A DNA stretch of 63,753 nt from Rhynchobatus australiae (Eukaryota), in the NCBI GenBank assembly GCA_034780895.1, contig JAUZTB010000017.1:21623554-21687306 (forward strand), written 5' to 3'. Under the pieces are notes generated by a model. The model worked only from the letters and a program-made list of their open reading frames with translations. It ran no database searches and had not been told where the DNA came from. Positions 5,474-31,914 of this stretch are shown here, piece after piece (the stretch's first letter is position 1; each line of letters begins with the position of its first letter). The translations under genes and the position numbers were made by a program.

Positions 5474-7280
5474 TTGGTTCAGGTGATGCCATTGTGGAGA
5501 CAATGACTGGAGGTCCAGTACGCCTGGTCACTTTTGGGTTTGCAGGATTCGCCAGCTGGTAAGCTGAGCTTGTAGGTACCAGTGTAGACTCCACCTGTGT
5601 TCCCGGCTTTCGGAGAATCCGAGGACTGTTGTGTGGGCTGTGCATAAGAGACTGAGTTGAGCTGCGCTCCCTCGTCATTAGTTCTATGGGTACAGTATAA
5701 GTAGTAGAGTAAGCAGTTTTGGGACCTGTATTTGGAGTAGCCTGCAGTGTAGTCATTGCTATTCCAGACTGAGCAGGGTAGAGAGGCCCTGATCGCAGGT
5801 TCTGCAGCCCAACTGGGGCAGTGCCGCTGTAGCCTGTGAAGCTTGGAAAATGGTTCCCCAGTCTTCCAGGCCCAGAGGAACCATAGTTAGCAGTTTCGAG
5901 GAGATGCTGGGATGGGGCACTGGATGGCCGACGGTTCACTTCAGCAAGCCTGGGTGACATTGGTTGCAATGCCATTGGTAGCTGCTGAGCAGTGGGATTA
6001 TCCATTGTTGGGACCACCCCTGGCTGAACTCCATAGTCATTACGCATCAGCTCACTTCTGTGACTGAAGCTGTTTGAACGTGTTCTCATCCGGGCATTGC
6101 TGTTCTGCAACTCCTGTCGTAACTGCATGTCCGCTTTGCAACTGTGGACAAGCCGTAACAGCAACCGTGCCTGACCCAGATTCGGAGCCACGGACTTAAT
6201 GTCGTTTTCTTCCAACATGGCCAGGAAGTTTGTTGAATCAAATCCTTGTTGCAATAAGTTTGCAATTGTGTTTTCAGATAAGCCCTCTGAGCGCAGCAGT
6301 GCCAGGAATTCGGCTTTGCTGTCCTGCCCATGGATTCCAGCAGGAAGATGGCTGCGGGTCAGCATGGTGTTGTCATAACCATCATAAACAGGCTTTGAAA
6401 TTAAACTATCTCTGTGCGTTCCATAATCAGACATCATTCGAGTTGTCACTCCTTGCCTACGGCTGTGGTTTAGTGTGCCAGGGGACAGCATTCTATCCAA
6501 ACTGTTCTCACACCGAGATCCAGTGACAGGATCCACAACTAAACACGTTGGAGTAATCTGTCGTGTGCTGGTAGAGTCCACTGGCCGACCAGTGGCATCA
6601 CTGTACATCTGCTTACCAGAGAGAGGTGGTGGTTCAGCCCCATAACGAGGGAGAGGTGTTTCAGCACCATACCTGGCAGGAGAAGGATCTCGACTGCGTA
6701 TCTTCTGTCCATCGTGGACCAGCTTACCAGAAGGATCATGGTACATACGGTTTACCTCAGGAGGGGGAGGGGGCCTCCCTTGCGAGTGGTCCCACGACAT
6801 TCTCCCACCTGACATCCCATAATTCTGCGCTGATCTGTTAAGCATATGATCCCTATAAAACCGTGCCTCTTCAGATGGCCTAAGTGCCAGACCAGGCTCG
6901 CCATAGTAATCCTGAGGAGGCACTGAGTTGCGTCCAGACATCACGGCCTGCTTTTCATGGGAACAAGAGAGATCAGACACAGAGGATTTTCTCACAAGTC
7001 TGTGATCATTGCGATCGGGATAATCTTCATCAAACCCAGAATCTGGATACCTGTAATGTTCGTAATTATGTTCATACCCTTCTGCAACGTTGTGATCATG
7101 CACTCTGACGCTAACACTGCTGTCGCAGACACCGTCACTGGAGTAGGTTAGTGAATCTCTTCTCCTACGAGGCCTTTGGTATTCGCATGCGCTGTCGTTG
7201 TCCCAGTTGTCTTTGTACCATCCGCTAGAGTCCCAGCTCTGAGAGCAGCCAACAGTTGTATGCTTGCTAGGGACAGGCAT
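5474..7280 (-). CDS. CTBP2: RIBEYE A-domain exon (ribbon-synapse-specific first coding exon of CTBP2), 602 codons + 1 nt
   Basis: 609-aa ORF starting MPVPS and ending ...KVTRRTGPPVIVSTMASPEPS, with RRPSSAPSQHLLET and KTAYSTTYTVPIEL motifs recognisable as RIBEYE A domain. Donor CAA|GTAATA (GT at 5473-5472) is phase 1 (1807 nt), so A+GT gives Ser into the common IRPQIMNG exon. The ORF tail NTFFTF is intronic read-through. Confidence 0.95.
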
Positions 7281-9517: not shown

Positions 9518-9548
9518 AACGTTGTTGAATTAAAATGTCTCTTTCCAT
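9518..9548 (-). CDS. Candidate alternative first coding exon MERDILIQQR(C)
   Basis: gttgaaATGG (purine at -3, G at +4), 10 codons + 1 nt, then T|gtaagt; phase 1 like both known N-terminal exons. Confidence 0.4.
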
Positions 9549-21428: not shown

Positions 21429-23576
21429 GTGTTATTACAGGTTTATTACACCTACTACAGCATTACTTCTCATTTCTGCACTGGGAAAGTCACTACTTTT
21501 CTACTCCACCAGATCACACCAGTTGCTTCTCCATCAGCCAATAGAATCAGGTGAGAGGTAAGGGAGAAAGGCATTTGTCTGCATTGCAGGTATGCCAGTC
21601 TGGATGGTCCTTAGAGAGAGCTCCCCAGCTGTAGCCCTGGGGATTCTGTGTCATGGAAGGCCACAGTTTCATGTTAGAAAGAACACCCTTTCCTCAGTGG
21701 AGAATTGCCTGCCCCTGTACCAAATCCTCATCCGGCCCTTTGTTTTATATATACAGCATTGACAATCCTAATCTCCATGGCCCATCCCTCTGTAGAAGAT
21801 GTGATCCTCCAGGATCTGAAGTTCTCCATCCATAACCCAGGAGCACGTTCCCTACCCTCAGAAATTACTGGTGCATCCATAAAGGAAACCACATTTTACA
21901 GGTGCTGGAGGAGTACTGGTGTCATTCTGTTGTGTCTTTAAGGATTGGCTGAAGAGCTCTCAGCTGTATCTAAATGCTGGCAACAGCAAGAAATTTGGCT
22001 AGTAAAGCCTCCCATTTCTGCAACAGAGTGGCATTGCTCAAGGGAGCCCGCTTATGCTATTTTTCAAATAGCATTGAGTTTCATTACCTTTTAAAAGCGT
22101 TTTAAAGCAATTTAGCAAGGTATCAATGCTTTAATACCCCCAACATAATGTAGCTGAATTTCTAGGCCAATTCTATAAACAAAACGGTTGTTAATAGGTC
22201 AGATGCTGACTGACTCCAGCATTTTGTGCTCATAGATATTTCTTACTATATTTGGTTGTTCTTCTCTTAGTACATTTATCTAAACAATAAATGTCATTAC
22301 AAAGAGTCATTGGGGAATTAGAAATATACTACAAAACATTCAATATGTCTAAAAAGTGTTAATATTACATATCATACTGTGATATAGCAAAATACAAATA
22401 TTATTTACTACTCAAAGTTTCAATAATTAATTTCCTCTACATTAGGGCTAATCTGCAGTTTCTTCTCTGCACATCATCACTAATAACTCAATAAATGTGA
22501 TGACCACATTTTTTTTTCCCCCATTTACTAAAATAAAAGTAAGTACTGGCTGTATTCTTCAACACACAGAGTTTGGTACAGTCCACAAAGGAGGAATGAT
22601 CAGCTGGCACCAAGTTCTGAGATGTTAAGGTTTAGCTGGGATACAATTCTCATTACAGGTGAGTTCCTACAATGATGTCTTCATACTCCAAACATGAGTT
22701 TGGGCATAAAATGGGGGTTAAATATTTTTAAAGTGCACTTGAAAACTAAAGTACAGGGAGAATAGCATGATCCATTTTACAATTACACTCACAGCTTCAT
22801 TAATGTAGACATCAAATATAAATAAATACAAAAATGACAATAAATGATATATTTTAAAATAGAGAAATAATACATCTTGACAAACATTTGCATATTTAAC
22901 AACTTATGCATACTAAACTCATTTGCAATACAAATATATTACAAACTTCCTCTCCCACAAATACCAGCCTCTCACTATATACTGTCCAAAGGCGCATGAA
23001 CAACAAATCAAATTATCAAATAATCAGATCTCTTTTGATCATAAGTGCTACATGCCTTGTTATTTGCTTTTCCTGTAAAAGGAATCTGAAAACAACACAT
23101 GATCTGCAGGCTACAAGTTATTATACTGCTGTAATAGCTACCACAAAATATCATTTCAACTAGAAATTCATTGCCTCAATAGCTGAATCAGCTTCATTAG
23201 TTAACACCTCTCCCATGGTCTGAAGCATCTTCATTTGAACAATAAAAATAATTACAAATATTGTCAGCTTCAAAATAACCATTAACATTGGTTCTAAAAG
23301 GGAAAGCGGTCTAAGATTTAAAGGCTATGTTTCTTATGCCACTTTGCAGACATTCTCAAACTAAGGTCCAGATTAATTTCATTTACTGTGGATTGGGGAA
23401 AACATGTTTTGTGCAAATTTCAGATAAATTTATAACATACAAGTTTTCTATTAATTTCATACTTTGCTTTGAATCTCAACATTGTGTCATGCATAATTGG
23501 CGCCCAATAATCCAATGGGCTGCTTGCATTTCACTGAAGTTTCTAACCTTCCTGTATCTGAAATGTGCGTACGTAC

Positions 23577-23654
23577 CTCTCCTCGTTGCTGCTTTGCCTG
23601 CCAGATTGCTGTGTTCCTCTGTAAGCCGTTGCTGGTTTCCCCACCAAGCCCCCG
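23577..23654 (-). CDS. Candidate 78-nt in-frame cassette exon of CTBP2 ((A)GAWWGNQQRLTEEHSNLAGKAATRR(G))
   Basis: tgttcttgttattttttaaag|CGGGGG...GGAGAG|gtacgt; 78 nt, phase 1-1, no stop in the CtBP2 frame, locally GC/CpG-richer than its flanks. Confidence 0.5.
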
Positions 23655-26051
23655 CTTTAAAAAATAACAAGAACATAAGGGTCCTACAATTTGACAATAT
23701 ACGTCTTTCATTGTAATTAGAAGTAAGGGGAGGGGGTAGTAGATTTTTTAAACTGTTGATTTGCACTCGTTATAAGCACCCCCTCCCCCCACACACACAC
23801 AGACAGCAAGCATGCATTTTGTTTGCTTTATTCTCATATGCTCCAGCATGCAACTTTTATGAAGCACCAACATTTAGCTGATTCAGACAGTAACTCAGAC
23901 ACTCAGTTTGGGTTGGGAAGCTATCACATATCAGGAATGTCGAAGCACTTAAATGGGAATTGTAAATTATATAAAGAAGGCATTTATATTCAAACAACAG
24001 ATTTTTAAAAAATGAATCATGTTTCAACACTTTATTTTTCCTGCACAGCAATTTAAAGTCATCATTAACAACAGGTTAACAAAACCATAACGAGTATAAC
24101 CAAAAGGATTTATTTCTAGTGGAACGGCATTCAGAAATAGTAAAGTTATGTTGCACTTGTATATAAAGTCTGGTTAGATCAAAATTTTTTTTTATGGTTC
24201 TGGCACTCTTCTTACCAAATGTAGAAACACTACAGAAACTGCAATAACAGTTATAGGGATGACAGCAGGAGGCATAACCATCAGTAAAGAATAAACGTAT
24301 CAGGGCTTCTTTGCCTGGAGCAAGAGAAGGCCGCTGGATGGCCTGAATGGAAAAAGGGGGACAGTGGTGGTGACCTGATAGAGGAAAGATACATAAGAGG
24401 TTTTTACATTGTGAGGGGAATACATAGCTAAATTAATATATACACACAAACTAGTCACAATAAATCCAATAAAGAAATCAAGAAAAACACCTTTATACAC
24501 AGAGGAGTGAGACTATGGAATCTGCACATTGGTTGAGATAAATATAGCACAGGTGCATTCAATGAAGAGCTACCTCTTTAGCCAAGTTCTTAGCCCCCTT
24601 TCCCAATAGCACCTTGTAAGGGTTGTTCTAAATGCCACTGTGAAGAAATTTGGGACATTTTATTCCAAAGGAGCTACGCAAATAGAAGTTGTTGTTGCTG
24701 CTATTCTATCCAGTGGTGGGGGTTGCAATTTCTCACCCGTTGTTCTAACATTGTAACCAGATCTGGCTCTGATTTTATGATGGTGAGGACTCTCTCTTAT
24801 GCCCAGACTTCACCAAGGCTGCTGCATCACTGCTATGAAAGAAGCTGAAAGCAGTTATCCAAACCAGATCCATGCACACATAAGCAAATACCAAAGGATA
24901 TGTTTCATTTTGAAATAACTATACAGAAAATGTTTAAACTACTTTAGCGTTCATTACAGAATGAATAGTATCAGGGACTGAAAACTGCATCCACGTGACT
25001 GCCTTCCCAGGTGGACAAAATGAGTTCTGAAATTATGGGATGAATGTACTGGGAGATTTACAAATTATTAATAGTGGGAGGGACATAAATAAGATAAAAA
25101 GATGCAATTGCTTTAAATATCTTAATAATAGCAACATCTCAATTCACAAGACTTCACATCCATCACAGCAAGCACTTTCCTAACTCTGGCTAATTACCTT
25201 TGCCCAGTAATGACACTAATGACAAACATACAAATAAAAAAAACTTTTTGAAGAACAAAATCACAGAAAAAGAACAAAATAATGACTACTGATTTTCAAA
25301 CAGCCAGCAACTCAAAAGACTCAGTAATTAGTGGGAACCTTACAGAGATCAATGATTGGACCTCTGTTGAGAAACACTTCTCTCTGTCAATGCATCCAAG
25401 GTCAGTTCACTTGCTGCCTAGGCATATGCAATTTAATTGGAGCCAATGACTGTTTTCGCTCCTGATCCAGACCCTGCTGACTGATGTGGTCTCCTCAAAC
25501 AATCTGCACCCGGACTTTCAACAAAGAATGAAAGCACAGCAGGGAAACACAGCTTTAAGTAGTCCTCAAANNNNNNNNNNNNGTGGAACAAAATAGTTTT
25601 ATCAAAAAGTAATATGCAATCAGCATTCATACAGATCTTATTTTAGTTCAGGAATCTCACTGATTAGTTTGGATCAGTGGCCAACACAGCAAGATTCCAG
25701 GCACAGCAGCAAGTTATAAATAATTGGCCAGGATTTTGAACATGCGCTCAAAGGACAAAACAAAATAAATGACTAGTACACCATTTCACCTAAAAGAATA
25801 ACACCTCAGGAAATGTCATGCTCCCTTAATAATTTCCCAGAATATAAAGTTCCAGGGCTGGACCTGAACCTATAACCTCTGACCGAGAAGTGGGATGAAG
25901 CAAACTGTACTAAACTCCTATTTTAAAAGCAAATTTTACCACTGTACAACCAGTGGGAATCAGGTTAATGTCATTGGGTGGCTATTTTAATCTGGACAGA
26001 AAGACAGCAATCTGACTGACACCTACAGGCTTCAGCTGGTATTTCTTATTT

Positions 26052-31507: not shown

Positions 31508-31556
31508 CTTCACAAATTCGATCCAATCGTTGCCGCTTCACTTTGTGCTTGTCCAT
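31508..31556 (-). CDS. CTBP2: CtBP2 N-terminal coding exon portion, MDKHKVKRQRLDRICE(G), containing the KVKRQR nuclear-localisation motif
   Basis: Reverse complement reads ATG GAC AAG CAC AAA GTG AAG CGG CAA CGA TTG GAT CGA ATT TGT GAA G|gtaagc, matching the vertebrate CtBP2 N-terminus (MALVDKHKVKRQRLDRICEG). Phase-1 donor. Too short to appear in the ORF track. Confidence 0.95.
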
Positions 31557-31677
31557 CAGAGAAGTCAGCGGTGCCACTTAAAGAATTCCTTTCACTAATA
31601 ACAAGCAAACAGCGTTCGAGTTGTTCACTATTCAGATGAATCCACAGGAGTGCAAGTGCATAACTCTACGCCAAATC
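31557..31677 (-). other. CTBP2: 5' UTR part of the CtBP2 start exon (whole exon 31508-31677, 170 nt)
   Basis: Acceptor gtctcttcaaatttcag|GATTTGG (AG at 31679-31678); in-frame TAA upstream of the ATG. Confidence 0.75.
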
Positions 31678-31914
31678 CTGAAATTTGAAGAGACGAAAGT
31701 AGTCAATGAAACTGGAGCCACATGGATATTCAAAATAAACCCCATACTAAGTTAGTAAAATAAAACAGTAAAACCTCTTTACTAATGCACTGCATCAAGG
31801 CTTTGTTGGGATATCTCAACACCCCACAAAAATAGTCAATTATATTCACAAATACGGAGCAAAGAGAAACTTGAATCATATTTATTTTAATTATTCATTT
31901 TTCAGGATTCTGAC

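Follow-up and report, generated by a model that had tools for sequence, protein, structure and literature searches.

Does the first intron of the elasmobranch CtBP2 gene hold a coding exon that lengthens the N-terminal tail of the protein and, if so, what might the added residues do? The question stems from a first-pass annotation of a stretch of Rhynchobatus australiae DNA (63,753 nt, hereafter the window), in which a 78-nt in-frame cassette exon was proposed between the CtBP2 start exon and the RIBEYE exon. We have addressed it with the DNA of the locus, with RNA reads of related species, and with the CtBP2 proteins of sharks, rays and bony vertebrates.

The CtBP2 locus

The minus strand of the window carries the 5' part of CtBP2, that is, the start exon and the RIBEYE exon (Table 1). 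Translation starts at an ATG at 31556, and the coding part of the start exon (31556-31508) encodes the KVKRQR nuclear signal up to the donor at 31508/31507; at the other end of the exon, read coverage stops at 31678-31680, at the junction to upstream UTR exons. The common exons of the gene lie outside the window, and exon 2 (155 nt) is found at L007 8822-8668, so that intron 1 measures 82,685 nt, of which 76,637 are non-N. Set against CtBP1 and CtBP1-like, the locus has the features of CtBP2, namely the KVKRQR exon, the RIBEYE exon and KDYF in the C-terminal domain, the last being named as a cartilaginous-fish CtBP2 motif in the available part of a preprint on CtBP evolution (bioRxiv 10.1101/2022.06.23.497424). 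Among six species compared, the sawfish Pristis has the RIBEYE domain nearest to that of the window (583/600 residues identical). Shark CtBP2 begins three residues earlier than ray CtBP2 (445 versus 442 aa; window 31565-31556, minus strand), and the position of the shark start codon reads ACT in the window. At the upstream border of the start exon (31678-31680, minus strand), at least two different 5' UTR exons are spliced onto it in runs X11 and X13, and another in X10.

Table 1. Features of the CtBP2 locus in the window, with the basis on which each was placed
Feature	Position	Strand	Basis or remark
Cassette exon, 78 nt, symmetric phase 1-1, encodes the 26-aa insert	23577..23654	-	Sequence, junction reads, 14 database isoforms
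U-rich tract and weak AAG acceptor	23655..23680	-	Sequence; GT..AG joint in reads
Donor GTACGT (GAG/GTACGT; GT at 23576-23575)	23571..23576	-	Sequence; loose ends continuing into exon 2
In-frame ATG inside the U-rich tract, no sign of use	23674..23676	-	Sequence
TGCATG, upstream intron, lead only	23847..23852	-	Motif scan
TGCATG, upstream intron, lead only	23811..23816	-	Motif scan
TGCATG, downstream intron, lead only	23488..23493	-	Motif scan
CtBP2 start exon	31508..31678	-	5' UTR part and 49 coding nt; donor phase 1
RIBEYE A-domain coding exon (alternative first exon)	5474..7280	-	Internal acceptor 7267/7266

The cassette exon in the DNA

Every element that had been read from the sequence, that is, the U-rich tract, the AAG acceptor, the length of 78 nt, the donor and the open frame, is present as written. 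The AAG of the acceptor lies at 23657-23655 (minus strand), and the reading frame is free of stops and fits both the frame of the exon-1 donor and that of the common exon 2. Scored with rough matrices, the acceptor is weak (1.6 against 8.0 for the exon-2 acceptor, with 339 of 5116 intron AGs scoring equally high or higher) and the donor is fairly strong (25 of 4390 intron GTs equally high or higher). When the whole of intron 1 was scanned with the same rough matrices for symmetric open AG..GT segments of 30-300 nt in which both sites score at least as high as those of the candidate, the one segment found was the candidate itself. An upstream TAG acceptor at 23684 was discarded (score -2.9, and no joint among the rows listed).

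The exon is purine-rich (69%), and its GC content of 59% compares with 31% and 43% in the 100-nt flanks. It has a single match in its own genome by a search that skips common words, which leaves a repeat origin unsupported within the reach of that search, and we rejected the idea that it arose by duplication of exon 1 or of the RIBEYE 3' end, because 192, 377 and 134 of 500 shuffles reached equal scores in the comparisons made. Three TGCATG hexamers, which we take to be RBFOX-type elements, lie within about 200 nt of the cassette against 0.16 expected in 400 nt, a count made post hoc among eight motifs. In the upstream flank, 291 nt of organism C show 2 changes, compared with 38 over 1556 nt (p = 0.08, among the rows listed), and we claim no conservation on this ground.

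Splicing in RNA reads

Of thirteen runs listed, six were compared with the locus, and X11, X12 and X13 among these are raw RNA of one related species (organism A) from one study; 18-24% of each of the three was read. The available RNA runs come from organisms A and E, and the run that contains all the sampled words of the sequence is that of organism B. The junction from exon 1 to the cassette (31508->23654) is carried by 32, 14 and 39 reads in X11, X12 and X13, from 27, 9 and 28 start points respectively, and its CT..AC ends on the plus strand are GT..AG on the minus strand. First mates lie mostly on the plus strand (29:3, 14:0 and 34:5), which therefore fits minus-strand RNA. On the downstream side, loose ends that leave the cassette at 23577 and continue into exon 2 number 16, 12 and 50 among the rows listed. 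Reads that pass directly from exon 1 to exon 2 number 7 in X11 and 10 in X13, with none among the rows listed for X12, where rows of 4 reads do appear. Inclusion stands at 0.77 in X11 and 0.82 in X13, which are samples of unlabelled tissues, and it is similar wherever it was measured; counted like for like, with loose ends onto exon 2 only, 16 of 23 reads (95% interval 0.47-0.87) and 50 of 60 reads (0.71-0.92) include the exon. The cassette is therefore included in the majority of transcripts in these RNA samples of the related species.

Contigs from two further runs, X1 (a different study of organism A) and X10 (organism E), again show the joint between exon 1 and the cassette, and X10 has a loose end into exon 2 as well. 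The joint is absent from run X6 (organism C, DNA-like), in which all 30 bins are covered, and this run therefore behaves as DNA would. The sole change listed within the cassette among organisms A, C and E is a synonymous one at 23584 (ACG>ACA). With GT-AG boundaries used on both sides and with included and skipped forms side by side, the element is a cassette (skipped) exon of the U2 type. The two junctions that the proposed exon had to produce, 31508->23654 and 23577->exon 2, are thus both present in related-species RNA, and these reads, together with the conserved predicted isoforms described below, bear out the first-pass annotation as to the in-frame exon, the precise ends of that exon, and the insertion of 26 aa behind the nuclear localisation signal (NLS). 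That the exon is real and conserved is, in our judgement, practically certain.

A different use had also been envisaged, namely that the in-frame ATG at 23676-23674 turns the cassette into an alternative first exon, which would give a protein devoid of the nuclear signal. The frame of this ATG is the right one and other small first exons are present in CtBP2 intron 1, but the three RNA runs, of unlabelled tissues, have zero depth in 23727-24003 and no start cluster listed (in 277-nt bins, with 23655-23726 unresolved separately), the depth over the cassette agrees with the number of spliced-in reads, and 0 of the 14 insert-bearing database proteins begin at this ATG. The idea thus found no support, and we regard it as extremely improbable.

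One could also argue that the exon acts at the RNA level, as a splicing way-station in an 83-kb intron that routes transcripts out of frame and lowers output via decay. Reads of the kind that this would produce do exist: five in X11 join the cassette to window position 7266 inside the RIBEYE exon, where the frame stops after about 40 codons, and four in X13 join it (23577) to exon 3 (L008 about 6921, minus strand), skipping exon 2 and shifting the frame. Each off-route event is, however, listed in one of the three runs only, with 4-5 reads against 78 in-frame reads from the cassette to exon 2, and in X11 exon 1 seems to use the same RIBEYE acceptor without the cassette, to judge from a mixed loose end at 31508. 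A role of this sort seems to us very unlikely.

An insert shared by sharks and rays

Relatives were collected by a search with the chondrichthyan C-terminal exon and by a listing of cluster members, which gave at least 480 proteins. The chondrichthyan clusters hold at least 77 proteins, 24 of them with both the NLS exon and exon 2, and among these 24 the insert is present in 14 and the remaining 10 are of the skipped form. The 14 are distinct sequences from as many named species, eight of them rays (Pristis pectinata, Mobula birostris, M. hypostoma, Hypanus sabinus, Hemitrygon akajei, Narcine bancroftii, Amblyraja radiata and Rhinoraja longicauda) and six sharks (Hemiscyllium ocellatum, Chiloscyllium punctatum, Scyliorhinus canicula, S. 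torazame, Carcharodon carcharias and Pristiophorus japonicus). Skipped and included forms pair in the databases as 442/445 aa versus 468/471 aa.

Among the other 403 proteins, 112 have both anchors, all of them bony-vertebrate CtBP2 among the members listed. The insert occurs in 0 of these 112 annotated proteins, a set that holds no short isoforms of chimaera, coelacanth or lungfish. In the same listed members the junction is plain in 93 of 112 and holds some other, unrelated sequence in 19 of 112, such inserts being found in teleosts, crocodilians and whales. The junction thus appears to tolerate insertions. Because of the junction counts, the 14 shark and ray sequences and the 0/112 in bony vertebrates, we read the element as an elasmobranch-wide CtBP2 cassette exon, apparently the major form. 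Direct searches with the peptide were of little use: phmmer found 0 hits to a 33-aa frame among 1.84 billion 50% representatives, and a word-based search with a 40-aa window frame against longer proteins gave one candidate and none that scored, both being uninformative since the insert isoforms are hidden as cluster members. The ESM Atlas gave no usable match.

When the 14 sequences are aligned, 17 of the 26 columns of the insert do not vary, among them the first ten and the terminal RR. The variable columns are unevenly spread, with 0 of 10 in the first part and 9 of 16 in the rest (Fisher p = 0.004, post hoc and on related sequences), and position 11 is leucine in rays and proline in sharks. 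Between sharks and rays the insert is identical at 19-22 of 26 residues. The RIBEYE A domain has diverged to a similar degree (428-506 of about 590-600), whereas the core is far better conserved (323-325 of 326) and the C-terminal domain stands at 91-97 of 99, which speaks against strong constraint on the insert.

Much of this pattern would suit a tolerated spacer, that is, an old exonisation that has come to prevail and is under no demand other than to stay in frame and to be spliced, its 5' half being held by splicing enhancers and the two proteins being alike in function. We take this as the main rival because the second half of the insert varies as the RIBEYE A domain does and because unrelated inserts stand at the same junction elsewhere; the weak acceptor, the purine richness of the exon and the absence of the insert from the bony-vertebrate proteins examined, among the members listed, point the same way. 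Even the invariant half may be held by splicing signals instead of by the protein, since it adjoins the weak acceptor. Against this stand the length, which is 26 aa in every one of the 14 sequences although the frame would survive a change by any multiple of three, and the run of ten consecutive invariant residues, WW among them, together with an invariant terminal RR that is distant from the acceptor. The split between sharks and rays is roughly 270-300 million years old, and features that stayed fixed across it therefore count against a mere spacer, which we regard as possible though somewhat doubtful.

What the insert might do

The insert lies between the KVKRQR nuclear signal, which it leaves intact, and the folded core. 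All 15 matches to solved structures begin at residues 41-56 of the 468-aa form, in which the insert occupies 17-42; since none begins before residue 41, the insert is essentially outside the solved structures, in an N-terminal tail that is presumably disordered. An AlphaFold2 model built on a 26-sequence alignment had a mean pLDDT of 34.7 even in the known core and was discarded, and a complex prediction of the insert region with the core dimer and NAD (score 0.02, mark 0.34) was used neither way. The PXDLS motif is absent from the insert, and a leucine-rich export signal was rejected, L11 being proline in sharks.

In the available text of one study, residues 4-14 of human CtBP2 promote nuclear localisation, acting as a signal either for import or, if K10 is acetylated by p300, for retention, and the first 25 residues alone fail to target a foreign protein (PMC1592084); in that of another, a CtBP2 form without the nuclear signal reaches synapses (PMC3382178). 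As far as these texts go, the N-terminal tail sets the localisation of CtBP2, and context matters (PMC1592084, PMC3382178). The effect on nuclear import or partner binding that the first-pass annotation suggested for an insert here is conjectural.

It is tempting to propose that the exon, which is in frame, mostly included and kept at 26 codons, equips the N-terminal tail of a nuclear corepressor form with a short binding motif, a proposal to which we give about an even chance. An insert-bearing protein would be made and would remain nuclear, since its nuclear signal is untouched; the invariant, tryptophan-containing half would be a short linear motif that tunes the access of partners to the tail, candidates being p300, by which the signal lysine is acetylated, and factors of import or retention, and the variable half would be a spacer.

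The terminal RR invites a more specific reading. Placed directly before G-I-R-P of exon 2, this invariant pair might mimic the RRT of the RIBEYE linker and bind the CtBP groove in cis or in trans, with competition against RRT partners or a changed ribbon assembly as the outcome. According to a preprint, filaments are built by the RIBEYE RRT motif, which binds the B domain, and were abolished by alanine at any one of R546, R547 and T548, and the RRT motif of the RIBEYE linker and of ZNF217-type partners likewise has an arginine pair shortly before the core (bioRxiv 10.64898/2026.04.28.721253). The junction [T/A]RR-G resembles [T/A]RRTG in the RIBEYE of rays, sharks and a whale, and R10-x-[T/A]12 of the insert and the RIBEYE RRT are equidistant from exon 2. 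Unlike the RRT motif, however, the insert junction has no threonine after RR, which is followed by G in 14 of 14 sequences; the upstream match has no second R; and the DNA of the cassette shows no similarity to the RIBEYE 3' end (192 of 500 codon shuffles equally high). Because the threonine is missing, each of the three residues is needed for the RIBEYE filaments, and the two exons are unrelated in sequence, the insert falls outside the RRT class, and we find mimicry highly unlikely.

In a bolder form of the binding proposal, the corepressor that sharks and rays make by default would have in WW and the RR before exon 2 an old docking site peculiar to this clade, to which either a nuclear partner or the RRT groove of CtBP2 itself binds. 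Splicing of the one exon would then switch which repressor complexes, or which ribbon assemblies of electroreceptors and retina, the protein joins. We consider this unlikely.

Known forms and what is new

The insert had been annotated as unlike any described isoform, and for the papers searched this stands, since a literature search found the cassette exon undescribed (most subscription journals and preprint supplements such as Figure S12 were outside its scope). The section on vertebrate N-termini of the CtBP evolution preprint deals with RIBEYE only (bioRxiv 10.1101/2022.06.23.497424), and for chick the available part of a further paper describes only the short form and RIBEYE (PMC8793361). 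The statement does not extend to the databases, in which the 26-aa insert is already predicted, in RefSeq and UniRef, as unnamed automated models. Isoform X4 of Pristis pectinata (XP_051883238.1, RefSeq predicted) has the same exon at the same place and of the same 26-aa length, with a peptide identical to that of the window, and exon, place and length are again the same in Hemiscyllium ocellatum X2 (XP_060697989.1), Scyliorhinus canicula X4 (XP_038677654.1) and Amblyraja radiata X3 (XP_032889609.1). In RefSeq an included form often has several accessions where the skipped form has one. These models carry neither name nor function; to them we add direct counts of junction reads, a comparison between species, and the finding that the bony-vertebrate proteins examined lack the exon. 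The exon is machine-annotated, its function is putative, and it brings no new mechanism.

In the available parts of the papers on mammals, CtBP2-L, CtBP2-S and RIBEYE likewise vary only before exon 2, the dehydrogenase-like core being unchanged (PMC3382178, PMC1592084, PMC8793361). As far as described there, CtBP2-S lacks the nuclear signal and RIBEYE, transcribed from a different promoter, has other sequence in its stead, whereas the elasmobranch form keeps the signal and adds 26 residues after it. CtBP2 hardly varies among jawed vertebrates (in the sharks and rays compared, 323-326 of the 326 core residues agree), and the combination of such a core with an insert that prevails in the RNA samples and is common to sharks and rays therefore offers a clean natural variant of the nuclear-retention tail. 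For those who clone or quantify skate or shark CtBP2, the textbook 445-aa form may be the minor one. More generally, in-frame cassette exons that are specific to one lineage and fall in disordered parts of conserved regulators form a known class, with which this exon shares its symmetry, its short length, its weak acceptor, its place outside folded domains and its restriction, so far, to one clade. Young lineage-specific exons are usually minor forms; the cassette differs from them in being the majority form in the samples.

Further alternative exons at the locus

Several other exons and splice routes were seen around the cassette. A small alternative first coding exon at 9548-9518 (minus strand), with its ATG at 9548, a GTAAGT donor and no nuclear signal, matches the 436-aa isoforms of Mobula hypostoma, Narcine and Amblyraja. 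Another short alternative first exon, of the MW[K/R]QHFPG type, lies at L006 about 4901 (minus strand), about 45 kb beyond the window start; exons of this type occur in sharks, rays, bichirs, sturgeon, gar, teleosts and a bird, and the donor here appears to be GC and not GT. In the thorny skate, Amblyraja isoform X2 (P0291) has an extra 35-aa predicted exon between exon 1 and the cassette, the motifs of which are absent from the window. The RIBEYE-internal acceptor at 7267/7266 (minus strand) sits 14 nt past the RIBEYE ATG, and the join made there is out of frame; the Arapaima gene predictions P0316 and P0321 join exon 1 to RIBEYE in frame. Finally, an ATG at window position 7099 (minus strand), in a second frame of the RIBEYE exon, matches the start of the Narcine predicted isoforms P0272 and P0274, which suggests further splice routes through this exon.
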